Shown: piece after piece, positions 71-51,114 of the stretch
Numbering within the stretch: position 1 is the stretch's first letter
Layout: every line of letters starts with the position of its first letter
Source of the DNA: Patescibacteria group bacterium
Lineage (GTDB): Bacteria; Patescibacteriota; Microgenomatia; Levybacterales; UBA12049
Reading direction: 5' to 3'
DNA length: 56,707 bases
NCBI GenBank assembly: GCA_035510695.1
Contig: DATKGO010000062.1
Coordinates: 1-56,707, forward strand
Notes under the pieces: model-generated
Told to the model about the DNA's origin: nothing
The model's database searches: none
Seen by the model: the letters and a program-made list of their open reading frames with translations, nothing else
Program-made: the position numbers and the translations under genes

Positions 71-196
71 AGGATTATTAGTTTGTCCTGTTTTTTGGGA
101 AAAGTCAAATTTTAACCGAAAACTTATTTACGAAAAGTATATTACGTTATCAGCCAGACGCGAAAGACTTTTCATATTTGGTATATAATCAAATTA

Positions 197-664
197 ATGA
201 AGAAATGTGATCATAAAAGTGTGGGAATTTTGGTTTGGAAAAATGAAAAGCTGCTTTTGATTGAACGTGCCAGATTTCCCTTTGGTTTTGCTCCTCCCGC
301 AGGTCACGTGGATGCGGATACCACTTTTGAAAGTGCCGCAAAAAGAGAATTAGCTGAAGAGACAGGTTTGATAGCCACATCATTGCAAGTAGTTGCGATG
401 GGGAAGAAAGAAAATGTTTGTCGACGAACTGACGACAAATATCATGAATGGAAAATTTATTGTGTAGAAACAGAAGGTAGTTTGAAGACTGATCCGGCAG
501 AAGTTAAACAGGTAAATTGGCTTTCTTTAGCAGGGATAAGAGAATTGGCTGCTTTGACGAATCGGTATCTTAAAGGTGAGATATCCGAGACGGAATGGGA
601 GAAACGGCCGGGGATTGAACCTGTATGGTATGATTGGTTCAAAGAATTGGACATACTGAAATGA
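197..664 (+). CDS. NUDIX hydrolase
   Basis: Nudix box core RELAEETGL preceded by GHVDADTTFESAAK. Typical length of 155 aa. Confidence 0.85.
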   Translation: MKKCDHKSVGILVWKNEKLLLIERARFPFGFAPPAGHVDADTTFESAAKRELAEETGLIATSLQVVAMGKKENVCRRTDDKYHEWKIYCVETEGSLKTDPAEVKQVNWLSLAGIRELAALTNRYLKGEISETEWEKRPGIEPVWYDWFKELDILK

Positions 665-1104
665 AAAAGATAAAAATTATTACTCTTTGTGCAAGTCTCA
701 CGCATTACCGCCAGGTTTTGGACATCGAGAAACAATTAAAAAAATTGGGATATAAAGTTAAGTTGCCGCCTACGGCAAACGTCATGAAACGGACGAATAA
801 TTTTGATGTGTCAACGTATAAAACTTGGTATAAGAATAAAAATGATTATAAAAAGAAAACACAACTGATGAAGGCTCATTTTAAAAAAGTGTTGGCTGCG
901 GACGCGATTTTAGTAACCAATTTTGAGAAAAATAGTTTGCCCGGCTATATCGGTGGAAATGTTTTGATGGAGATGACAGCGGCGTTTATGAATAAGAAAA
1001 AGATTTTTATTTATAATCCCATTTCAGAAGATTTGGGAATAAAAGAAGAGGTCTACGGATTAAATCCCATTTTTATAGATGGAGATTTGGAAAAAATTAA
1101 GTAA
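661..1104 (+). CDS. nucleoside 2-deoxyribosyltransferase-like protein (tentative)
   Basis: ATG at 661 overlaps the NUDIX stop (ATGA coupling). The pattern ADAILVTNF...GYIGGNVLMEMTAAF...KKIFIY resembles the deoxyribosyltransferase-like fold; this is recalled from memory, not searched. Confidence 0.4.
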   Translation: MKKIKIITLCASLTHYRQVLDIEKQLKKLGYKVKLPPTANVMKRTNNFDVSTYKTWYKNKNDYKKKTQLMKAHFKKVLAADAILVTNFEKNSLPGYIGGNVLMEMTAAFMNKKKIFIYNPISEDLGIKEEVYGLNPIFIDGDLEKIK

Positions 1105-1111
1105 AGAGTAC

Positions 1112-1522
1112 GTCATTGCGAGGAGGGTTAAGAGCGTCAATGAGAGGAACAAAAAAGGTGTCATTCTGAGGCGTAGCCGAAGAATCTCTCGCGAATGCGA
1201 GAAAGATTTATGTCGTACTATGTTTATATTCTGACAAATAAATCTCACACACTATATGTTGGTGTTACTAATAATTTACCACGAAGACTTCAGGAGCACT
1301 CTCTTAAGTTAATGTCAAGCTTTACCAAAAGATACAAAATTGATAAGCTTATTTACTGTGAAATATTTGAAAACGTTTACGATGCAATAAGTGCTGAGAA
1401 AAAAATAAAAGGTTGGACAAGAAAGAAAAAAATAGAGTTAATAAAATCTATTAATCCGGAATTTAAGGAATTACAAATTATCTGAAACAAGTTCAGAGAT
1501 CCTTCACTGCGTTCAGGATGAC
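1112..1522 (+). mobile_element. GIY-YIG gene bracketed by inverted GTCAT-hairpin repeat units (candidate mobile or homing unit)
   Basis: The left unit is GTCATTCTGAGGCGTAGCCGAAGAATCTC (1160-1188), with a degenerate unit at 1112-1147. The right unit (1496-1522) reverse-complements to GTCATCCTGAACGCAGTGAAGGATCTC. Confidence 0.5.
1210..1485 (+). CDS. GIY-YIG nuclease family protein (UPF0213/YhbQ-like)
   Basis: MSYYVYILTNKSHTLYVGVTNNLPRRLQEH carries the GIY/YVG motifs. The size (91 aa) is typical. The start was moved to the ATG at 1210. Confidence 0.85.
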   Translation: MSYYVYILTNKSHTLYVGVTNNLPRRLQEHSLKLMSSFTKRYKIDKLIYCEIFENVYDAISAEKKIKGWTRKKKIELIKSINPEFKELQII

Positions 1523-1547
1523 ATTTTCTATTGGTTCAAGCTAGCTT

Positions 1548-2222
1548 TTAATGATTTTCAGGAGATTTCGAAGTGACGCTTGTGAGGTTTAAATACGCGG
1601 CCAGGGTGAGGTAATACAGCCAGTGCAGCATAAAAGTATAGACGACTCCATATTGGACGTTTAGAATAATTACCGGGAAAATAAAGCCGCCGAGAAAAGC
1701 CGCAGTAGTGGTTACTGCCCCAAAGAAAAAATCTCTTTTGAAAAGATATAAATGACTTAATCCGAAAATCAAAGCGAAAAGCAGCATGACTAGTTGATTT
1801 GAAAAGCCTAAGTCTTTTAGCATGGCGATGATTGAAATTGCGCCAACTTGCTGGGTTAAAATATTAAACGATTTAGTTACAATGTAGCGATAACTCATGG
1901 ATGCAAAATAGAATTTTTTTGCTTCATATTTTTGCAAAATATTTTGTTTTACGTGTTGTTTCATAAATTTGTAAAAAAGAAAAATGAAAAGGTAAAAGAA
2001 AAATAAAAATATAAACGCGATAGGGGAAAAGGTTAAAAAAAATTGCTTCAGATAAGGGGAATAGTATAAAAAGAAAATAATTGTAGAGAGAAGGAAAAGA
2101 ATCGAGGCTTTTTTATATTCACTAACATAATTTATTTTTTGACCTGAAAGTCTATTAAAGATTATGCCACCTGCGAAAAAGGCCAATATAAGATTTAATA
2201 GAGTAAGAGTAGTGTGCGGCAT
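1548..2222 (-). CDS. polytopic membrane protein, possibly a degenerate CPBP-type intramembrane protease homologue
   Basis: Multiple hydrophobic helices. FGLSHLYLF resembles CPBP motif 2, but the EExxxR motif is not seen (QQVGA in its place). Confidence 0.4.
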   Translation of the reverse strand: MPHTTLTLLNLILAFFAGGIIFNRLSGQKINYVSEYKKASILFLLSTIIFFLYYSPYLKQFFLTFSPIAFIFLFFFYLFIFLFYKFMKQHVKQNILQKYEAKKFYFASMSYRYIVTKSFNILTQQVGAISIIAMLKDLGFSNQLVMLLFALIFGLSHLYLFKRDFFFGAVTTTAAFLGGFIFPVIILNVQYGVVYTFMLHWLYYLTLAAYLNLTSVTSKSPENH

Positions 2223-2292
2223 AGCGCTAACGTTATTTTAACATAAGGAGTAAATTATTTGACAAACCTATAGACTGCTGTACTATAAGAGT

Positions 2293-2577
2293 ATGTCGCA
2301 TGTTTTTTATACTTCACGAAAGAGGCATATCTTCGATGAATTTATCTATCCGGTTTCATTGATAGCCCCAATTATGACAATTCCACAGCTTTTAAGTATT
2401 TGGTTGCAAAAATCTACGCAAGGAATTTCAATATTGACTTGGTCGGCTTATGCTTTAGTATCTTTGTTATGGATTATCTATGGGGTAATTCATAAAGAGA
2501 AGCCGATTATCGTTAGTAATTTTTTACTTTTCATTTTAGATACATCAATTGTAATCGGAGTTTTATTGTATTCTTGA
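2293..2577 (+). CDS. SemiSWEET / PQ-loop family transporter
   Basis: 94 aa with three predicted TM helices. PQ motif (IPQLLSIWLQKSTQGIS) followed by WIIYG. Confidence 0.7.
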   Translation: MSHVFYTSRKRHIFDEFIYPVSLIAPIMTIPQLLSIWLQKSTQGISILTWSAYALVSLLWIIYGVIHKEKPIIVSNFLLFILDTSIVIGVLLYS

Positions 2578-2600
2578 GATTGTTTATTTTCAGGTTAGTT

Positions 2601-2609
2601 TGTTATAAT
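2601..2609 (+). promoter_or_regulatory. extended -10 promoter (TGtTATAAT) 7 nt upstream of ATG 2617
   Basis: TGTTATAATCCTCAGT-ATG with no Shine-Dalgarno. The same TATAATCCTCAGTA string recurs at 6730. Confidence 0.55.
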
Positions 2610-2616
2610 CCTCAGT

Positions 2617-3261
2617 ATGCCAAATTTTGTTCAAGCAAAATTAATTTCATTCTTCAGTCAATACCAAAAACAGACATTTAATAAAGCAGAGATTCTTATT
2701 TATCCCCGTACTGTTCCACAGGGAGTTTTTTATTTGCGAAAAGGCGAAGTGAGAATGTACGCGATCAACAAAAACGGCAATGAATTGACCATAAATATTT
2801 TTAAACCTCATTCTTTTTTCCCCATGAATTGGGTAGTAAATGATTTCAGGGATGATTACATTTATGAAGCGACTGTTGACGCAGAAGTTTTTATCGGCCC
2901 GAAAGACAAATTTTTGGCTTTTCTTCATCAGGAACCCGACATTATCTTTGATTTACTACAAAGAATTTACAAAGGATTAGGCGGTTACTTTTTGCGCATG
3001 GAATCGTTACTTACCGGGGACGCGTATTTTAAGACGGTTGTGGCAATTTGCATTTATGCAAGAAGATTTGGTGTAAAAAATGAAGATGCAAGCGGCTTTA
3101 CAGTTGATGTCACCCAAAAACAGTTGGCAGCTCTTGCCGGTTTGACCCGGGAGACAGTGACGCGGGAAATCAAAAAAATCGCAGATAAAAAATTGGTGGC
3201 TTATCAAGGCAAAACTTTGATAGTTTTGGATATAAATAGGTTGGAGAAAGAGATACTTTGA
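2617..3261 (+). CDS. Crp/Fnr family transcriptional regulator
   Basis: N-terminal cNMP-binding-like beta-roll (GVFYLRKGEVRMY). C-terminal HTH (TQKQLAALAGLTRETVTREIKKI). Confidence 0.8.
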   Translation: MPNFVQAKLISFFSQYQKQTFNKAEILIYPRTVPQGVFYLRKGEVRMYAINKNGNELTINIFKPHSFFPMNWVVNDFRDDYIYEATVDAEVFIGPKDKFLAFLHQEPDIIFDLLQRIYKGLGGYFLRMESLLTGDAYFKTVVAICIYARRFGVKNEDASGFTVDVTQKQLAALAGLTRETVTREIKKIADKKLVAYQGKTLIVLDINRLEKEIL

Positions 3262-3296
3262 TTTAAGATTTATGATTTAAGAATAAAGATAAAAAT

Positions 3297-3363
3297 GTCA
3301 TTCCCGCGAAAGCGGGAATCCAGTTAACAAAAAATGGATCCCTGGTTTGCGTCCAGGGATGAC
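3297..3363. repeat. GTCAT-hairpin doublet (REPIN/MITE-like)
   Basis: GTCATTCCCGCGAAAGCGGGAATCC, a 14-nt spacer, then GGATCCCTGGTTTGCGTCCAGGGATGAC. Each unit is a perfect 8-bp hairpin and the two units are in inverted orientation. Confidence 0.85.
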
Positions 3364-3441
3364 AAAAACGTTTAAAAATTGTAAAATAATTTAGCATTTC
3401 CTCTTTACAACACTCCGGTAATGTACTAATCTATAACACAT

Positions 3442-9370: not shown

Positions 9371-9450
9371 AATTTATTTTTACTCTCTAATTGTAAGAAT
9401 TGCAACCAAAGGATTGTTAATGTATCTGTTCACACTTCTGACACGATTTT

Positions 9451-9530
9451 GTCATCCCGAACTTGTTTCGGGATCTAAAAAAGCTTGCCCTGAGCTCGTT
9501 TCAGGGATGCTGAATCAAGTTCAGCATGAC
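9451..9530. repeat. GTCAT-hairpin composite (three units)
   Basis: The forward unit is GTCATCCCGAACTTGTTTCGGGATC. On the other strand GTCATGCTGAACTTGATTCAGCATC is fused to the CCCTGAAACGAGCTCAGGG hairpin. Confidence 0.8.
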
Positions 9531-9585
9531 AATTTTATGTTAGGATTGTGAACTATTACTTGTTAATTTGTTATACTTAATATTA

Positions 9586-9960
9586 ATGAAGCGCGGTAAA
9601 AGACATATTGCGAAAAATATTGCCCTGGTAACGATTTGTATCGGGGTCTTTTTTTTGCTCGTCAGTGGGATTTATTTATTTACCGATGTGCGGACGATTC
9701 ACCATTATTATTCCATCAGACATATCAGTAATGTAGATATGATTCAGAACTGGATGACACTGCATTATATTTCTAATTCTTTTGCTGTTCCGGAACAAGT
9801 ATTATTAAACGCTACTCATACGACACTGCAGCAGTCGCATCATCAAAGTTTAAGCAATCTGGCGAAAACACATAACGAATCGGCGCAGCAGCTTATTGCG
9901 ACAATTCGTTCGGTAATTTTGCAATATAAGGCTCAAATATCTGTAACTCCAACTCCATGA
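9586..9960 (+). CDS. hypothetical membrane-anchored protein
   Basis: ATG at 9586 preceded by TATACT/TAATAT. One TM helix. Stop overlaps the next gene start (ATGA at 9957). Confidence 0.5.
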   Translation: MKRGKRHIAKNIALVTICIGVFFLLVSGIYLFTDVRTIHHYYSIRHISNVDMIQNWMTLHYISNSFAVPEQVLLNATHTTLQQSHHQSLSNLAKTHNESAQQLIATIRSVILQYKAQISVTPTP

Positions 9961-10559
9961 ATTTTATTCTCAATCAATTGCTTACATTGGTTCTTGCATA
10001 CGGTTATCCGATTGTCGGGTTGTCGGTGGTCATAAGTTCAATCGGTTTCCCATTTCCCACGCCTATAATTTTGTTGGCAGCGGGCGCTTTAGCGGCATTG
10101 GGAGAACTTAATTTTTATGTTTTATTTTTTATTGTATTATGCTGCAGTGTCTTAGGCGATATTACGGATTACTGGTTGGGAGCGAAATTAGGTTATGCTA
10201 TTTTGCGACGTTTTAATAAACATAAGTCTTCGATGAAATTGTTTGGGAAGGGAAGAAAATATTTTTTTCGTTGGTCGGGAATTACCATTTTTTTAACACG
10301 TTGGCTATTTTCTATAATTGCATCGGTAATTAGTCTACTTGCCGGTACTACGGGATATCCTTTCGGTAAGTTTTTACTTTTTGATATTCCGGGGCAAATT
10401 ATATCCGCATTTGTTTTTTTGGGTTTGGGTTATTTATTTAGTTCCGAATGGCAAAACATTTGGACATACGTGCAAAGTGTATCTTTGTTAATGTCGGGAA
10501 TTCTTGTGGGGACTATTTTAATCATATTTGGTATTAAACAGTATAATCGGAAAAAGTAG
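9957..10559 (+). CDS. DedA/VTT-domain membrane protein (second paralogue)
   Basis: GYPIVGLSVVISSIGFPFPTPIILLAAG and LGDITDYWLG. Confidence 0.65.
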   Translation: MNFILNQLLTLVLAYGYPIVGLSVVISSIGFPFPTPIILLAAGALAALGELNFYVLFFIVLCCSVLGDITDYWLGAKLGYAILRRFNKHKSSMKLFGKGRKYFFRWSGITIFLTRWLFSIIASVISLLAGTTGYPFGKFLLFDIPGQIISAFVFLGLGYLFSSEWQNIWTYVQSVSLLMSGILVGTILIIFGIKQYNRKK

Positions 10560-16151: not shown

Positions 16152-16658
16152 ATGGAAAACACGAATAATTCTGTGTTAGATCGCATGTTAGCAATGGGAG
16201 AAAGACTGCCGTTTTTTCTTCTTTTGCTAATTGCCGGATTTTTTTTGTTTAGAGAGAATTCGCAGCAGGTACTTTCGGCGAAAACAACGTCTTTAAAACC
16301 GGTAGATGAAAAAATAGTTATACCGACATACCCTCCCACGCCTACGCCGACTGAGACACCGACTCCTACCGATACGCCGACGCCAACTTGCACTCCAACA
16401 CCAACGGTTGATCCGACTAATGATGCGATTTGGGATAGTATCGCATATTGCGAAACACACGATAATTGGGGTGATGATACCGGAAACGGATATTATGGTG
16501 GTTTACAGTTTTCGCAAACTGCTTGGAATTCTGTGGGCGGCAGCGGGAATCCGGCTCAGGCATCACGAACCGAACAAATCGCGAGAGGGAAATTGCTTCA
16601 AAATCAGCGAGGCTGGGGACCCTGGAATGTCTGCGCGAAGAAGTTGGGATTGGATTAG
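16152..16658 (+). CDS. Rpf-like (resuscitation-promoting-factor type) transglycosylase with PT-rich linker
   Basis: WDSIAYCETHDNWGDDTGNGYYGGLQFSQTAWNSVGG...GWGPWNVCAKKLGL. TM anchor plus a (TPTP)n linker. Confidence 0.8.
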   Translation: MENTNNSVLDRMLAMGERLPFFLLLLIAGFFLFRENSQQVLSAKTTSLKPVDEKIVIPTYPPTPTPTETPTPTDTPTPTCTPTPTVDPTNDAIWDSIAYCETHDNWGDDTGNGYYGGLQFSQTAWNSVGGSGNPAQASRTEQIARGKLLQNQRGWGPWNVCAKKLGLD

Positions 16659-21388: not shown

Positions 21389-21472
21389 ATTTGTTTAAGA
21401 CTGGTGCATCATGTTGGGGGATGGTTGTAGGAGATTACGTAAATAAACAAATAAAAGAATGAGAGAAAGATA

Positions 21473-21556
21473 GATTGCTTCGCTTCGCTCGCAATGACGT
21501 AAGACTGGATTCCCGATCAGAGCCTGTACTCGACCTGATCGGGGGTCGGGAATGAC
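21473..21556. repeat. GTCAT-hairpin composite (two units, both on the minus strand)
   Basis: Reverse complements are GTCATTGCGAGCGAAGCGAAGCAATC and GTCATTCCCGACCCCCGATCAGG...CTGATCGGGAATCC. Confidence 0.8.
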
Positions 21557-30228: not shown

Positions 30229-30236
30229 CATGCAAT

Positions 30237-30301
30237 GTCATCCTGAACTTGATTCAGGATCCAGAAAATTAAAAAAGATTCCGGATCAAGTCCGGAATGA
30301 C
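30237..30301. repeat. GTCAT-hairpin doublet (REPIN/MITE-like) between rpsF and ssb
   Basis: GTCATCCTGAACTTGATTCAGGATCC, a spacer, then GATTCCGGATCAAGTCCGGAATGAC. Confidence 0.85.
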
Positions 30302-30309
30302 AGTAGTTT

Positions 30310-37134: not shown

Positions 37135-37875
37135 ATGAAAAAGTTTTTATTCTCTTTCTATGCATTTTTTTTGCTTTTTTTAAATTTACCTATGACAAGT
37201 CGCGCCCAAGCCGACAGTCCCACAGATTCGCCTTCGCAATCTCCAACTAATACCCAGTCCAGTCCAACCACCTCGGTCTCTAATAGTCCATCTGCAGCTC
37301 CATCATTAACTGCAAGTTTAATCCCGGAAGAATCTCCTTCATCCACACCCAGTGTTTCGTCAGACCCTTCAGGTTCGCCGACGCCTTCTGTCAGTACGAC
37401 CCTTACTCCCACTTCATCAGTGACTCCATCTCAAACCTTAACATCTACGCTTAGTGGTACGCCCAGTGTTACTCCTACAGATACTTCAAGTACAACTCCG
37501 ACCCCAACAAGTTCTACAGATACGTCGACTCCGACGAGTCAACAGGCTCAGACAAATTCCGGGAATACTCCCACACCTACGCCGACCAATACCCCAACTC
37601 CGACACCTACGCCAAAACCTTTACTAATTCTTAGATCAATACCACCTCAAATCTCTGCCTTATTACCGTTAAATTTGTTGGATATGTCATATTATTCATC
37701 GCATAGATTGTCTCCCCAGGTTACACGTAATGCCATTTTTGTGGCGGCCATGTTCTTCATTTTCGGTTTAGTTTTTATTCAACCACAGCCGGTACGATTA
37801 TTAACTATGAAACTACGTAATAAATTAGCAATGTTGTCTTCGCCTTTTTCCAAGAGGATTTCTTTTGAAGGTTAA
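37135..37875 (+). CDS. secreted S/T/P-rich protein with C-terminal TM anchor
   Basis: Signal peptide ending SRAQA. About 150 aa of S/T/P low-complexity sequence including TPTPTPTNTPTPTPTP. C-terminal hydrophobic helix. Confidence 0.55.
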   Translation: MKKFLFSFYAFFLLFLNLPMTSRAQADSPTDSPSQSPTNTQSSPTTSVSNSPSAAPSLTASLIPEESPSSTPSVSSDPSGSPTPSVSTTLTPTSSVTPSQTLTSTLSGTPSVTPTDTSSTTPTPTSSTDTSTPTSQQAQTNSGNTPTPTPTNTPTPTPTPKPLLILRSIPPQISALLPLNLLDMSYYSSHRLSPQVTRNAIFVAAMFFIFGLVFIQPQPVRLLTMKLRNKLAMLSSPFSKRISFEG

Positions 37876-43087: not shown

Positions 43088-43120
43088 TAACATTATAACT
43101 TGATGAACTTTACGAACTTA
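43088..43120. repeat. left copy of a 32-nt near-perfect inverted repeat
   Basis: The reverse complement of 43089-43120 is TAAGTTCGTAAAGTTCATCAAGTTATAATGTT, matching 51083-51114 at 31 of 32 positions. Confidence 0.9.
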
Positions 43121-46584: not shown

Positions 46585-47799
46585 TTAGATAGTGATAAAG
46601 TTTTTTGAAGAATTGGTTAGCTGAATGAGTTTACCGTTTTGAATTGTATATAAGTCTTCAATTCGGATCCCGTATTTGCCATTTAAACCCTGCCTGCCGG
46701 CAGGCAAGTATATTCCCGGTTCAAGAGAAAAGACCATACCTTCTTTTAGTTCGTCTATGGAGTTTGGTGAGAGAGAAGGAGCTTCATGGACTTCCAGACC
46801 GATTCCGTGACCGAGAGAATGGGGAATAGAGGGATAACCTTGAGAAATAATATGTTGTCGTGCAATGTGATCGAGATCTGCAGCGTTAACAATGTTGTCA
46901 TTCCGGACTCGATCCGGAATCCAGTCTTTATCTCTCTGGATTCCAGCTTTTGCTGGAATAACAGAAGATGCTGAACTAAATTCAGCATGACGTTTAAATT
47001 TGGATTGCTTCGCTTCGCTCGCAATGACGTTAGTAATGAACGCCACTGCTTTTTGTTGTGCGGTTAAAACTGTTTCATAGACTTTAATTTCCTCAGCCTT
47101 TGGTTTACCGAAAAATAAAGTTCTGGACATATCGGAACAATAATTTTCAAATTTTACGCCAAAATCAAAAAGGACAAATTGATTGGGTTTTAATTTATTA
47201 TCACCGGTCAAATGATGGGGGATAGCTGCGTTTGCTCCGAATGCAACAATTGTCGAAAAAGATAGTTCAGCCCCCTGCTCGCGTATAAAATTTTCCAATT
47301 GATAAGCCAATTCTTTTTCAGTTATTGACTCATGAATTTGTTTAAGAATAAAAGTAAACGCGGCATCGCCAATAGCACAGGCTTTTTGAATAATTTGAAT
47401 TTCATCTCTAGTTTTTTGTTCTCTAAGTGTTCTTAAATTTACAGTTTTAAGTTCCGGCAATACTTTTTTAAATGTTACATATTCGGCAACGGTCAAATTG
47501 TCTCCCTCAAACCCGATGCTTTCTATTTTTTCCTCTGTTATAATTTTTTGCAGTAATTTAGAAGAGGAATTTTTTTGATTTCTTTCCAGAATTTGAAAAG
47601 TTGGAACTGCATCTTTAACCTGCTCGGTATATCTGGCATCAGTAATTAAATATTTGTTTGTCTTTGTGATAAACAGGTATGCTTCCCGTTCATCTTTAGA
47701 GAATCCGGAATAGCCTGTTAAATAAATAATGTTGGGAACGGAAGAAATTAGAAGAGCATCAAGGTGACTGGTATTGAGTAAATTGTGTAAGTAATCCAT
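46585..47799 (-). CDS. pepP: M24B Xaa-Pro aminopeptidase carrying a 44-aa repeat-derived insertion
   Basis: Pita-bread motifs FDFGVKFENYCSDMSRT, HSLGHGIGLEVHE, FSLEPGIY and IRIEDL. The insertion VIASEAKQS...WIPDRVRND is encoded by 46897-47028. Confidence 0.85.
   Translation of the reverse strand: MDYLHNLLNTSHLDALLISSVPNIIYLTGYSGFSKDEREAYLFITKTNKYLITDARYTEQVKDAVPTFQILERNQKNSSSKLLQKIITEEKIESIGFEGDNLTVAEYVTFKKVLPELKTVNLRTLREQKTRDEIQIIQKACAIGDAAFTFILKQIHESITEKELAYQLENFIREQGAELSFSTIVAFGANAAIPHHLTGDNKLKPNQFVLFDFGVKFENYCSDMSRTLFFGKPKAEEIKVYETVLTAQQKAVAFITNVIASEAKQSKFKRHAEFSSASSVIPAKAGIQRDKDWIPDRVRNDNIVNAADLDHIARQHIISQGYPSIPHSLGHGIGLEVHEAPSLSPNSIDELKEGMVFSLEPGIYLPAGRQGLNGKYGIRIEDLYTIQNGKLIQLTNSSKNFITI
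46897..47028. repeat. 132-bp block of four GTCAT-family hairpin units inside the pepP reading frame
   Basis: Four 27-nt units (46897-46923, 46936-46962, 46963-46989, 47002-47028) with two 12-nt spacers. Total is 44 codons. Confidence 0.85.
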
Positions 47800-49767: not shown

Positions 49768-51093
49768 ATGGCAAAGATAAAAACTCCTCCGCATAACGAC
49801 GAAGCAGAGCAAAGTGTACTTGGAGCAATACTAATTGATAAAGAAGCTATGACCCTTGCTTCCGGTATTTTGCGGCCCGAACATTTTTATAACGAACTTT
49901 ACGGTCTAATTTTTTCCGCGATGATTAGGATTCATGAAGACAGACGGCCGATCGATATTCTGACCATTACCAATGAGTTAAAAAAACACAATACAGATAA
50001 TAAAATAAAATCCTCGGTTTTAACCGATCTGGTTAACGCGGTACCTACAGCCGCCAATATTGAAGAGTACGCTCAAATCGTCAAAGAAAACGCAGTCAAA
50101 CGTGCTTTAATTCATGCAGCCACGGAAGTTGCAGAATTAGGTTTTCAGGAAGATAAAGATGTGAAAGAATTATTGGATAAAGCGGAATCCAGCATCTTTT
50201 CAATCTCACAAGCGCATATTAAACGGAATTTTATTCCGATTAGGGAAACACTGACCGAAAGTTTTGATCGTTTGGAGGAATTACATCGTTTGGGCGAGGG
50301 ATTACGCGGTGTTCCGACAGGCTTTACGGATTTGGACAAAATGCTTTCGGGAATGCAAAAATCAAATTTGCTTATTCTGGCAGCCCGTCCCGGACAAGGT
50401 AAAACCGCTTTAGTGGTAAACATTGCTCAATATGTAAGTTTAATTCAAAAAAAGGCCGTCGGTATTTTCTCTTTGGAAATGAGTAAAGAAGAATTGGTTG
50501 ATCGTCTCATGGTTTCTCAGGCAGATGTGGACGCTTGGCGGCATAAAACCGGCAGGTTAAACGAGGACGATTGGGGTAGATTATCCGATGCCATGGGACA
50601 GTTGGCGGAAGCGCCTTTATTTATTGATGATACTCCCGGTTTATCAATTGCCGAAATGCGTAGTAAAGCCCGCCGTTTGCAGCTTGAACAAAATTTGGGT
50701 CTGATTATTGTTGATTATTTGCAGTTGGTTGATGCGGGTCAAAAATTTGAGAATCGTGTGCTTGAAGTTTCACACGTTTCCAAATCGCTGAAGAATTTGG
50801 CTCGTGAATTGAATGTTCCGGTTCTAGCCGCATCTCAGCTTTCACGCGCGGTTGAGCATAGGGGAGAACGCAGGCCGCAGTTGGCAGATCTACGTGAATC
50901 AGGCGCAATTGAACAAGACGCCGACGTAGTTATGTTTATTTATCGTCCGGATGCAGAAGTTACCTCCACTAATATTCCGACTAAACTATTAATCGCCAAA
51001 CATCGTAACGGCGCCACAGGGGAAATTGACTTGCTGTTCCGCGGTGATCGCGTCCGATTTTACTCGGTTGAAAAACAACAAGTAAGTTCATAA
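49768..51093 (+). CDS. dnaB: replicative DNA helicase DnaB
   Basis: PPHNDEAEQSVLGAIL, Walker A AARPGQGKTA, IVDYLQL, SQLSRAVE and ESGAIEQDADV. Confidence 0.95.
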   Translation: MAKIKTPPHNDEAEQSVLGAILIDKEAMTLASGILRPEHFYNELYGLIFSAMIRIHEDRRPIDILTITNELKKHNTDNKIKSSVLTDLVNAVPTAANIEEYAQIVKENAVKRALIHAATEVAELGFQEDKDVKELLDKAESSIFSISQAHIKRNFIPIRETLTESFDRLEELHRLGEGLRGVPTGFTDLDKMLSGMQKSNLLILAARPGQGKTALVVNIAQYVSLIQKKAVGIFSLEMSKEELVDRLMVSQADVDAWRHKTGRLNEDDWGRLSDAMGQLAEAPLFIDDTPGLSIAEMRSKARRLQLEQNLGLIIVDYLQLVDAGQKFENRVLEVSHVSKSLKNLARELNVPVLAASQLSRAVEHRGERRPQLADLRESGAIEQDADVVMFIYRPDAEVTSTNIPTKLLIAKHRNGATGEIDLLFRGDRVRFYSVEKQQVSS

Positions 51094-51114
51094 AGTTCAT
51101 CAAGTTATAATGTT
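51083..51114. repeat. right copy of the 32-nt inverted repeat (overlaps the dnaB stop codon)
   Basis: TAAGTTCATAAAGTTCATCAAGTTATAATGTT. Confidence 0.9.

Follow-up and report, generated by a model that had tools for sequence, protein, structure and literature searches.

The gene for a 91-aa GIY-YIG nuclease that lies close to the left end of the window (the whole analysed stretch, 56,707 nt of a Patescibacteria contig) very probably belongs to an Ssn cassette, i.e. a minimal nuclease gene between two inverted hairpin motifs of the Ssn type (positions 1159-1523); we put the probability of this reading at roughly 0.8. The association of gene and hairpins is real and non-random, and the general phenomenon has already been published as the Ssn system of nuclease and hairpin repeats (Chenal et al. 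2025, Nat Commun 16:2388; PMC11893778). There, SsnA is a 94-aa GIY-YIG enzyme which binds such hairpins as single-stranded DNA only and cuts just upstream of them; it does not cleave dsDNA and does not bind RNA. A repeat-gene-repeat layout is typical of the ssnA gene.

Results

Anatomy of the cassette

The following elements make up the cassette and its immediate upstream neighbourhood.

1112-1147, plus strand: decayed hairpin unit of the TGC class (fold −4.1 kcal/mol, z −2.2)
1159-1188, plus strand: left-end Ssn-related hairpin motif, TGTC-ATTCT-GA-GGC-GTA-GCC-GA-AGAAT-CTC (1160-1188 being GTCATTCTGAGGCGTAGCCGAAGAATCTC)
1187-1202, plus strand: small hairpin TCTCGC-GAAT-GCGAGA between the left unit and the start codon (−6.2 kcal/mol, z −3.2, DNA fold)
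1210-1485, plus strand: ssnA-like gene for a 91-aa single-domain GIY-YIG nuclease (Pfam PF01541, E 1.7e-16)
1481-1497, plus strand: hairpin TCTGAA-ACAAG-TTCAGA over the TGA stop codon at 1483-1485 (−3.9 kcal/mol, z −3.3)
1496-1523, minus strand: right-end Ssn-related hairpin motif, on the minus strand TGTC-ATCCT-GA-AC-GCA-GT-GA-AGGAT-CTC, inverted relative to the left end (the reverse complement of 1496-1522 being GTCATCCTGAACGCAGTGAAGGATCTC)

The end of the upstream (T)GTCAT-hairpin-ATC unit is 23 nt away from the gene start, and 12 nt separate the stop codon from the inverted unit. When the window cassette is compared with related cassettes, DNA similarity begins exactly at TGTCAT and ends at ATGAC(A). 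The left unit consists of a GTC tag, an AT-initiated 5-bp outer stem, a tandem GA/GA internal loop and a 3-bp inner stem, with a C after the stem. There is no promoter-like site between this unit and the start codon, which places the unit in the 5′ UTR of the gene. The small hairpin that follows overlaps a weak ribosome-binding region with its 3′ arm. It is kept in the closest relative (L001, 77% amino acid identity) with both stem positions changed (TCTCAG...CTGAGA), and the hairpin over the stop codon is identical there; comparison of cassette DNA found neither of the two in more distant cassettes.

A check of the window sequence recovered every element listed in the first-pass annotation, each in its place. 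The call of a degenerate unit at 1112-1147 is borne out by the first 14 nt (GTCATTGCGAGGAG), which are intact and identical to a unit class common elsewhere (intact counterparts, GTCATTGCGAGGAG...CGAAGCAATCTC, are present in L018, L053 and L057), but not by the decayed 3′ half, which has one stem mismatch and a G in place of the post-stem C.

The nuclease

PF01541 spans residues 3-74 of the 91-aa protein; the only other domain match is a weak overlapping one to T5orf172, and Pfam gave no match to Y1_Tnp. The search for homologues retrieved 761 proteins, and across a set of 24 homologues Y6, Y16 and E63 are invariant. Y16 and E63 are 47 residues apart, the same spacing as between the catalytic Y17 and E64 of N. 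meningitidis SsnA, and going by numbering the three residues would be equivalent to Y6, Y17 and E64 of that enzyme. The one-residue offset relative to SsnA is the gap that appears in the alignment with the homologue of A. lipoferum 4B, in which 87 residues align at 41% identity (E 4e-26); the flanks of that homologue's gene match the published SRM expression four times. Homologues from L074, L075 and L077 are 53-57% identical to the window protein, and their genes are flanked by NTS-like GTCATTCCCGCGAAAGCGGGAATC units. These similarities serve as a proxy for how the Ssn paper defines the family, namely by cd10448 as the top CDD match and by a BLASTP alignment to N. meningitidis SsnA (CAX49033.1) at E < 1e-10 that covers ≥75% (PMC11893778).

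The AlphaFold2 model (pLDDT 90.3) is one compact GIY-YIG domain with the order beta-beta-alpha-alpha-beta-alpha-alpha. Its nearest solved folds are the UPF0213 structures 1zg2/1ywl and Slx1 (Foldseek probability 1.0, TM about 0.6), with sequence matches at E 1e-9 and 2e-8 and an identity of only 28-31%. A phage or plasmid origin of the gene was considered and rejected: 50,697 phage records contained 0 matches, 2.9 million viral contigs contained 9, all of them distant, and the 13 'plasmid' matches are mostly to non-mobilizable replicons, several of them megabase-sized.

Structure of the hairpin units

Both gene-flanking units are built from a 5-bp outer stem, a GA/GA internal loop, an inner stem of variable length (2-3 bp) and a CTC tail. 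With standard DNA energy parameters they fold no better than shuffled sequences (z −1.0 and −0.1), so that the structural claim rests on covariation: the inner pair of the right unit covaries from G-C to A-T across the family. Tandem sheared G•A pairs and mini-hairpins of the d(GCGAAGC) type are known for their stability and may likewise be invoked for the structure of these units. All of 53 distinct units retain the GTC, a stem that begins with AT and the 3′ C, and the interior varies freely.

The published SRM expression is HGTCWYN(0-2)YYVSBRHN(0-5)WNVSBRGN(0-2)RNCYNB, used with the criterion of at least one match within 500 bp on each side of the gene. Neither gene-flanking unit matches it. 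The sole match in the window (3296-3323) is 1.8 kb away, and in the retrieved loci only 2 of 117 flank units are matched. The flanking units thus make up a variant motif class, but the protein is not thereby excluded from the family; only 42% of the accepted Ssn homologues have matches on both sides, and the criterion is therefore not a necessary one (PMC11893778). Since the GA-bulged variant escapes the published pattern, the published repeat counts are probably underestimates. Protein similarity is slightly higher within a stem class than between classes (57.1% vs 55.1%; 2 of 2000 permutations), and the nearest protein neighbour shares the stem class in 51 of 62 cases, both figures being confounded by host phylogeny.

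A hammerhead-like reading of GUC...CUGA...GAA was discarded on inspection, which left no room for stem I and found only one of the two GA elements.

Other units in the window

A strict detector (GTCAT, a 5-nt stem starting at the AT, a loop of 3-26 nt, the reverse complement, then C) found 13 units in the window, compared with 0.8 ± 0.85 (maximum 4) in 200 shuffles, and a relaxed scan adds the unit 46939-46962. This corresponds to the high density of about one unit per 4-5 kb in the contig. One of the 13 detector matches (36921) looks spurious. Outside the cassette, the units are arranged as follows.

3296-3364: gene-less head-to-head doublet of 3296-3323 (plus) and 3335-3364 (minus); folds −9.0 and −7.4 kcal/mol, z −4.6 and −3.8
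9450-9531: gene-less head-to-head doublet of 9450-9477 (plus) and 9504-9531 (minus), in the intergenic region that separates a DinB-family gene from a 130-aa ORF
21471-21499, minus strand: solo unit of the TGC class, CGTCATTGCGAGCGAAGCGAAGCAATCTA, intergenic, after an FtsX/MacB permease gene
30236-30302: gene-less head-to-head doublet of 30236-30263 (plus) and 30275-30302 (minus), taking up the space from rpsF (S6) to ssb
46896-47029: cluster of four units, 46896-46923 (plus), 46937-46963, 46965-46992 and 47001-47029 (all minus), in frame within a gene for an Xaa-Pro peptidase (M24)

The gene-bearing pair had been said to share its outward termini with gene-less doublets, and four doublets (3296-3364, 9450-9531, 30236-30302 and 46896-46963) indeed read TGTCAT...ATGACA. 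They have 8-bp stems and loops of 4-5 nt, with one loop of 7. The plus-strand unit at 3296-3323, TGTCATTCCCGCGAAAGCGGGAATCCAG, is the Neisseria NTS consensus save for its first base, and this type of doublet is also present in L001.

The bracket at homologous loci

In 80 loci drawn from many phyla, units occur at 3.86/kb in the stretches up to 150 nt from the nuclease gene and at 0.134/kb elsewhere, a 29-fold enrichment; the retrieved loci contain 343 units in total vs about 20 in shuffles. Of 83 genes scored with the strict detector, 71 are accompanied by a unit in the correct orientation no more than 150 nt away on one side or both, 46 of them on both, and most of the 12 genes that lack a strict unit show longer or variant ones on inspection. 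The bracket is found in most of the 80 loci and recurs in Patescibacteria, Chloroflexota, Clostridia, Planctomycetota, Nitrospinota, Zixibacteria and others. The first-pass annotation had suggested looking for flanking units at related genes and for the gene in repeat-rich genomes. Paralogues and orthologues elsewhere are flanked by units, which favours the association, and 81% of the genomes with >200 such repeats carry an ssn gene (PMC11893778).

Discussion

A model for the probable Ssn cassette

By homology to the characterised SsnA of Neisseria and Wolbachia, the window protein is probably an Ssn-type nuclease with site-specific ssDNA cleavage, here on variant hairpins. A unit would become exposed in single-stranded DNA, supplied by incoming transforming DNA or possibly by replication or repair intermediates, and one strand of each unit would fold into the hairpin. 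The protein would bind this hairpin, for which it would depend on the stem that opens with AT and on the C immediately 3′ of it, and would hydrolyze that strand at a point a few nucleotides 5′ to the GTC tag. Extrapolation from the N. meningitidis cut site predicts cuts at ~1155/1156 on the plus strand and 1526/1527 on the minus strand. Double-stranded DNA and RNA would be left uncut. The other ~11 units of the window would be further substrates, and as most units occur in head-to-head pairs either strand should be cuttable. Repeat-bearing ssDNA would thereby be fragmented and recombination modulated around the marked loci. An effect on transformation has been shown for homologues (PMC11893778). 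With the Neisseria enzyme, altering the stem sequence while keeping the hairpin abolishes activity (PMC11893778), so that specificity cannot be transferred from Neisseria to the window enzyme.

Placing the Ssn/hairpin system in Patescibacteria is an incremental addition to what has been published. These bacteria are ultra-small, presumably DNA-scavenging organisms with very small genomes, and an ssDNA 'restriction' of incoming DNA could matter to them. The GA-bulged variant clade spans many phyla and may provide candidate enzyme/site pairs for ssDNA tools.

Mobility and other explanations

The Ssn cassette could in addition be an active mobile element, a reading that extends the Ssn explanation and does not exclude it. 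The autonomous cassette would then be a still-active selfish element mobilised by its hydrolytic ssDNA nuclease with the help of host repair or replication, its ends would proliferate as MITE- or REPIN-like gene-less doublets that are themselves still mobilised, even giving in-frame insertions, and the GA-bulged hairpins would represent new specificities. We regard this as possible but doubtful. The cassette layout together with gene-less doublets derived from cassette ends does point to a selfish, IS-like origin. This hypothesis gains from the sharp TGTCAT/ATGACA boundaries and from five loci (L062, L044, L057, L073, L053) in which the left and right units of the resident cassette also make up the gene-less doublets; in L062 nothing intervenes between left end and right end, ...GGATCTCAT running straight into GAGATTC.... 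It also gains from cassettes situated within otherwise conserved operons, as in A. lipoferum (sufB-[ssn]-sufC) and downstream of rpsG in a Daviesbacteria, and from the in-frame cluster in the M24 peptidase, which is absent from solved homologues and adds ~45 residues compared with PDB 2zsg (read as ...VIASEAKQS...VIPAKAGIQ...WIPDRVRND...). Moreover, an Ignavibacteria gene and two Zixibacteria genes share 83% nucleotide identity with no similarity in their flanks, and the closest relative of the window gene (L001) lies in an unrelated gene context with 0 flanking genes in common.

On the other hand, relatives, neighbour proteins and a metagenome scan yielded no pair of filled and empty sites: the exact neighbour proteins of the window gene occur on only one other contig, from the same organism, the metagenome scan with the upstream neighbour gave 12 homologous loci of which 0 were syntenic, and protein P0009 has an identical context in all retrieved contigs. 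Synteny across species is seen for several cassettes whose divergence is about as fast as that of their flanks, which looks like vertical inheritance. The units within one genome are diverse and not near-identical copies, and no target-site duplication was seen by eye around the window doublets. Hydrolytic GIY-YIG nucleases form no covalent intermediate, as is established for the superfamily, and such an enzyme alone can therefore not rejoin DNA; to our knowledge, no strand-transfer chemistry has been described for a GIY-YIG hydrolase. The proposal that the nuclease is an analogue of a RAYT, made from the window sequence and already raised in the 2025 Ssn paper (PMC11893778), is upheld as far as the partnership is concerned, by the bracket statistics and by the hairpin binding and cutting of SsnA (PMC11893778), but mobilisation is an unproven hypothesis.

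A homing-type selfish gene is very unlikely. Here the doublets would pre-exist, the nuclease would cut the empty ones and repair would copy the gene into the spacer. It is true that the gene with its ribosome-binding site fills exactly the spacer of a doublet, that GIY-YIG is the classic homing-endonuclease fold, and that the protein has weak similarity to a group I intron endonuclease model (TIGR01453). However, this similarity is limited to residues 5-37 and scores 19.7 bits against a cut-off of 56.05, a DNA-binding domain is absent, and the homology arms would be only ~27 nt long and variable. Usually one or two nuclease genes per 20-kb locus stand alongside many empty doublets, and the phage and viral collections described above hold no close relative. 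Homing also needs a double-strand break in duplex DNA, yet the characterised homologues do not cleave dsDNA. What survives of the earlier idea of a homing endonuclease that targets the hairpins is the targeting, in the form of ssDNA; the homing falls with the missing domain and the low model score, and no homing event was found.

We also think it very unlikely that the units work mainly at the RNA level, as terminators, stabilisers of mRNA or regulators of translation, with the link to the nuclease being secondary. The window units are almost all intergenic, often at the 3′ ends of genes, the left unit must be part of the 5′ UTR of the nuclease gene, and Di Nocera et al. have made the case for many REPs being transcribed and functioning as RNA (PMC3733652). 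Nevertheless, a scan of the whole window against Rfam at gathering thresholds gave no match, and no T tract of the terminator type follows the units. The orientation of the units to neighbouring genes is not fixed because they come as inverted pairs. SsnA does not bind RNA, and the conserved unpaired GTC tag and 3′ C are the very positions that matter for ssDNA cutting and binding in SsnA mutagenesis (PMC11893778).

The notion of an ordinary GIY-YIG gene that happens to lie in a repeat cluster, or of passive cargo between repeats as the first-pass annotation had also offered, could appeal to the single example in the window and its dense units (13 in 57 kb), but is refuted, with next to no probability left, by the same bracket and 29-fold local enrichment at homologous loci, by all 37 inverted pairs spaced 250-500 nt in 81 sequences enclosing a GIY-YIG gene and never another, and by the agreement of the published Ssn statistics with an association (PMC11893778).

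Comparison with known systems

The Ssn cassette can be set against several known systems. GIY-YIG homing endonucleases such as I-TevI and phage Seg proteins share the catalytic domain family and a compact, selfish-gene-like cassette, but the window protein has no DNA-binding domain and no intron or phage context. The UPF0213/YhbQ-like proteins and the nuclease domain of Slx1 have the minimal fold and size in common with the window protein. Slx1 cuts branched duplex DNA and needs Slx4 and a RING domain, and we know of no reported association of stand-alone UPF0213/YhbQ-like proteins with hairpin repeats.

With REP/REPIN-RAYT systems the cassette shares one small gene between inverted hairpin repeats with a short unpaired tag, scattered inverted doublets without a gene, hairpins in single-stranded form as the target, and a largely vertical inheritance of a mostly single-copy gene. 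The resemblance is architectural only: a GIY-YIG hydrolase and an HUH Y1 tyrosine transposase (IS200/IS605-related) are unrelated in fold and chemistry, and the tag is GTC in the window and GTAG in RAYT systems.

The closest likeness in published work is to the Ssn system itself. Both have a single-domain GIY-YIG protein of ~90-95 aa (under 150 aa) and, on either side of its gene, inverted hairpin repeats of 20-50 nt in which an unpaired (C/T)GTC tag precedes an AT-initiated stem with a variable interior and a C behind the stem. In both, numerous additional copies are present, for the most part between genes and as head-to-head pairs. The invariance of the GTC, the AT stem and the 3′ C around a free interior mirrors the results of SsnA mutagenesis and loop replacement. 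The window differs in its host, a Patescibacteria MAG from a group absent from Chenal et al. 2025 (PMC11893778), and in its GA-bulged gene-flanking units, which fall outside the published SRM expression; the nuclease activity is predicted by homology.

The CGTC-tagged REPs classified by Di Nocera et al. (2013, BMC Genomics 14:522; PMC3733652), among them Neisseria dRS3 and Rickettsia RPE-4 and RPE-6, were described as elements that 'apparently lack a dedicated transposase'. The gene-less doublets of the window share with them the CGTC/TGTC tag, an 8-bp stem begun by AT and a loop of 4-5 nt, a CCA tail in most units, and an arrangement as head-to-head dimers, often heterodimers; in-frame intragenic copies occur as in the RPEs. 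Here, as in the Ssn paper, there is a dedicated nuclease partner, in contrast to the description of 2013. The gene-flanking units depart from the 8-9 bp stem and loop of 4-5 nt of the four CGTC families but keep the tag and the AT start, and they constitute a structural variant of the CGTC-tagged REP superfamily. The Ssn paper (PMC11893778) does not cite the CGTC-tagged REP classification. The 'orphan' REPs with a CGTC tag from 2013, dRS3 and the Rickettsia RPEs among them, are the Ssn-related motifs of 2025, a link between two papers neither of which cites the other (PMC3733652; PMC11893778).

Organisation of the nuclease cassette

Judged by its sequence, the cassette at 1159-1523 is an Ssn system, a kind of system known since 2025. 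It consists of a GIY-YIG nuclease gene between two inverted hairpin units, and the sequence elements listed for this locus in the first-pass annotation could each be located, including the right-hand hairpin that overlaps the stop codon:

1210-1485, plus strand: nuclease ORF, 91 residues
Left unit, GTCATTCTGAGGCGTAGCCGAAGAATCTC: ends 23 nt 5′ of the start codon
Right unit, GTCATCCTGAACGCAGTGAAGGATCTC in minus-strand reading: starts 12 nt 3′ of the stop codon
1187-1202: small hairpin, folding better than shuffles (z about −3.3)
1481-1497: small hairpin across the stop codon, folding better than shuffles (z about −3.3)

In the cassette alignment the two small hairpins are common to the window and its closest relative only, and in one of them both stem positions are changed in that relative. 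The element at 1112-1147, previously called a degenerate unit, deserves this name for its decayed 3′ half; the 5′ half is intact and belongs to a unit class frequent elsewhere. The Pfam GIY-YIG catalytic domain covers residues 3-74 of the protein (E 1.7e-16), the only other match being a weak, overlapping one to T5orf172. An AlphaFold2 model is confident (pLDDT 90.3); among solved structures, two uncharacterised UPF0213 proteins (1zg2 and 1ywl) are nearest to it and Slx1 comes next, and no Ssn structure was found in the PDB set searched.

Conservation of the bracket

By its source record the window belongs to a MAG of the Patescibacteria group. Its nuclease has 761 close homologues at E ≤ 1e-5. 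Scanning one genome per species yielded 80 loci with 49-77% protein identity, from lineages that include Patescibacteria lineages, Chloroflexota, Clostridia, Planctomycetota, Zixibacteria, Nitrospinota and Deinococcota. These loci contain 343 units compared to about 20 in shuffles, and their density is 3.86 per kb up to 150 nt from the gene versus 0.134 per kb elsewhere. The nearest upstream unit is in plus orientation in 51/82 genes and the nearest downstream unit in minus orientation in 47/82. With the window gene included, a correctly oriented unit lies within 150 nt on at least one side of 71 of the 83 genes and on both sides of 46; most of the 12 genes apparently lacking a flanking unit show longer or variant units when inspected. 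All inverted pairs spaced 250-500 nt apart (37/37) enclose the nuclease gene, and in an alignment of six cassettes nucleotide similarity starts exactly at TGTCAT and stops at ATGAC(A). The bracket noticed at first pass is thus real and highly non-random: because of this density, orientation, exclusive spacing and shared boundaries, the gene and its two hairpins belong together as a single conserved module, about 365 bp long.

In a Daviesbacteria lineage (contigs L081-L090, protein P0009) the cassette lies directly 3′ of rpsG in the rpoC-rpsL-rpsG cluster, in convergent orientation, and this context is identical in every retrieved contig from many samples. Left and right units alternate in tandem arrays that adjoin the gene downstream in loci L063, L065 and L070 and on both sides in L053 and L057. 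Such arrays expand or contract; in related Deinococcota genomes there are five units in L063 (10311-10726) and seven in L065 (10311-10940). A distant GIY-YIG homologue with 34% identity to the window protein is present on a related metagenome contig (L093, 2570-2755, minus strand), just upstream of a gene homologous to the 147-aa neighbour in the window; no detectable units were found near it.

Other units in the window

A unit, in our definition, consists of GTC, a stem beginning with AT, an interior of 3-26 nt and a complementary arm ending in AT, followed by C. This detector gave 13 matches in the window versus 0.8 ± 0.85 in 200 shuffles; 12 look real, and a relaxed scan added one more. The base 5′ of GTC is T or C in almost all of them. 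Outside the cassette, all groups but the last are intergenic:

3296-3364: head-to-head doublet
9450-9531: head-to-head doublet
21471-21499: solo unit
30236-30302: head-to-head doublet that occupies all 81 nt separating rpsF (ribosomal protein S6) from ssb
46896-47029: four-unit cluster

The unit at 3296-3323, TGTCATTCCCGCGAAAGCGGGAATCCAG, equals the consensus of the Neisseria hairpin motif NTS save for the first base, here in a Patescibacteria genome of 37% G+C, and this doublet type also occurs in the closest relative (L001, positions 3-72). The four-unit cluster exactly encodes an in-frame insertion of ~45 residues relative to PDB 2zsg (window 46879-47037; ...VIASEAKQS...VIPAKAGIQ...WIPDRVRND...) in a Xaa-Pro peptidase gene (46588-47799, minus strand) whose Pfam M24 domain is found in two stretches. 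It resembles in-frame copies of the Rickettsia palindromic elements, members of the CGTC-tagged repeat superfamily according to Di Nocera et al. (PMC3733652).

Many nuclease homologues are located on very short contigs, and Logan contig SRR8676592_229237 (L091/L092, 3213 nt), assembled independently from the same organism and matching about 112-3324 of the window, breaks within the doublet at 3296-3364, which suggests that the hairpin repeats fragment short-read assemblies.

The window holds two further kinds of repeat. A 32-nt inverted repeat (43089-43120 and 51083-51114, 97% complementary, arms 7.96 kb apart) could either mark, as terminal inverted repeats, the ends of an unrelated mobile element or represent duplication of a regulatory site. 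Related repeats of 18-nt period at 16333-16414 and 37568-37613, rich in ACNCCN codons, are probably Thr/Pro-rich linkers of two different large proteins.

Structure of the hairpins

The units fall into two structural classes. The gene-less doublets of the window are perfect hairpins: their stems have 8 bp, their loops measure 4-7 and most of their tails read CCA, and their predicted folding is strong (z −3.8 to −4.6). The gene-flanking pair, like most flanking units elsewhere, is built differently: the outer stem has 5 bp, GA stands invariantly on either side and could pair as tandem G.A, the inner hairpin varies between 2 and about 10 bp and the tail is CTC. Standard DNA energy parameters give the two gene-flanking units no folding advantage over shuffles (z −1.0 and −0.1). 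Comparison of 53 distinct 27-nt units lends support to their proposed structure. Pairing of the outer stem is no evidence by itself, because the detector imposes complementarity there; the inner pair is not forced, and changes from G-C to A-T in 13/53 units without ever being unpaired, while the next pair still forms in 48/53. Among these units no variation occurs at G1-T2-C3, at the AT that opens the stem, at the GA pairs or at the C that follows the stem. A frequent inner sequence is GCGAAGC, the well-known DNA mini-hairpin of extraordinary stability. Tandem 5′-GA/3′-AG mismatches are also stable in DNA, and both features fit a single-stranded DNA structure.

Variant units lacking the GTCAT tag occur as arrays of CCCCTGAGCGTAGCGAAGGATCTG-like elements in locus L048 (around 9870-10430) and as CTCAT-tagged hairpins such as CTCATTCCTGTGCCTGTCACAGGAATCC on Sinorhizobium meliloti pSymB (L114). 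Our detector and the published SRM expression, a degenerate search pattern for Ssn motifs, both miss them.

Role of the nuclease

The partnership between nuclease and repeats, the leading idea of the first-pass annotation, is sound and can be regarded as established. The most interesting extension, already voiced in the 2025 paper, is the less certain hypothesis that the nuclease mobilises the repeats as an analogue of a RAYT. In its favour, gene-less doublets in five loci (L062, L044, L057, L073 and L053) are composed of the left and right units of the resident cassette, whose ends are directly joined in L062, but rejoining of DNA goes beyond a hydrolytic nuclease, and a search for a filled/empty site pair found none. 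Cassettes within conserved operons (e.g. sufB-ssn-sufC), the in-frame cluster inside the peptidase gene and an Ignavibacteria gene sharing 83% DNA identity with Zixibacteria genes whose flanks are unrelated all add support to mobilisation, while several cassettes are syntenic across species and units within one genome are diverse.

A homing endonuclease targeting the hairpins is unlikely. Homologues do bind the hairpin, but only as single-stranded DNA, and do not cut duplex DNA; moreover the window protein has no DNA-binding domain and scores far under the threshold of the intron-endonuclease model, and phages essentially lack the gene. That the gene is mere cargo of a repeat doublet can be rejected, since inverted pairs at 250-500 nt bracket no other gene among the loci scanned.

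Relation to published systems

The CGTC-tagged REP superfamily defined by Di Nocera et al. 2013 (PMC3733652) has the tag CGTC, often TGTC, a stem of 8-9 bp 'almost invariably' starting with AT, a loop of 4-5 and a CCA tail, mostly in head-to-head dimers. It includes Neisseria dRS3 and Rickettsia RPE-4/-6, is carried among others by A. lipoferum, and 'apparently lack[s] a dedicated transposase' (PMC3733652). Chenal et al. 2025 (PMC11893778) described NTS, the oriented form of dRS3 (CGTCATTCCCGCGMAVGCGGGAATCYRG), and ssnA, a 94-aa single-domain GIY-YIG gene flanked by NTS/'SRM' motifs in many phyla, with at least one motif near 71% of homologues. The purified SsnA enzymes of N. meningitidis, N. 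elongata, N. wadsworthii and Wolbachia bind the hairpin in ssDNA alone and cleave a few nucleotides 5′ of the motif; cutting is mainly determined by the three bases before the stem and binding by the C after it, and replacement or extension of the loop is tolerated (PMC11893778). SsnA lowers transformation by NTS-bearing DNA, and the authors likened NTS-ssnA-NTS to an insertion sequence, offering the REP/RAYT analogy as a hypothesis (PMC11893778).

The window protein has the size and single domain of this family (91 aa, one GIY-YIG domain) and the catalytic Tyr/Tyr/Glu (Y6, Y16, E63), with a Tyr-Glu spacing of 47 residues equal to that of Y17 and E64 in N. meningitidis SsnA (CAX49033.1); in its inverted hairpin flanks the GTC tag and the 3′ C are retained. 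It shares 53-57% identity with homologues that have NTS-like units in their flanks. The A. lipoferum 4B homologue (41% identity, E 4e-26) has four matches to the SRM expression in its flanks; it lies between sufB and sufC on plasmid AZO_p3 (L115, record 255506-255799) and is accompanied on either flank by a canonical head-to-head doublet. The SRM expression matches neither gene-flanking unit of the window and only 2/117 flanking units across loci. We read this as a variant motif class and not as exclusion from the Ssn family, because the paper has no such requirement, only 42% of accepted homologues being flanked on both sides (PMC11893778).

The gene-less doublets of the window match the description of the CGTC-tagged REPs. 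As for Ssn, the invariant positions of the units are those critical in the published mutagenesis, and their hypervariable interior matches the published loop tolerance. The cassette is a further Ssn member, with a Patescibacteria host and a hairpin variant outside the published motif, and not a new kind of system.
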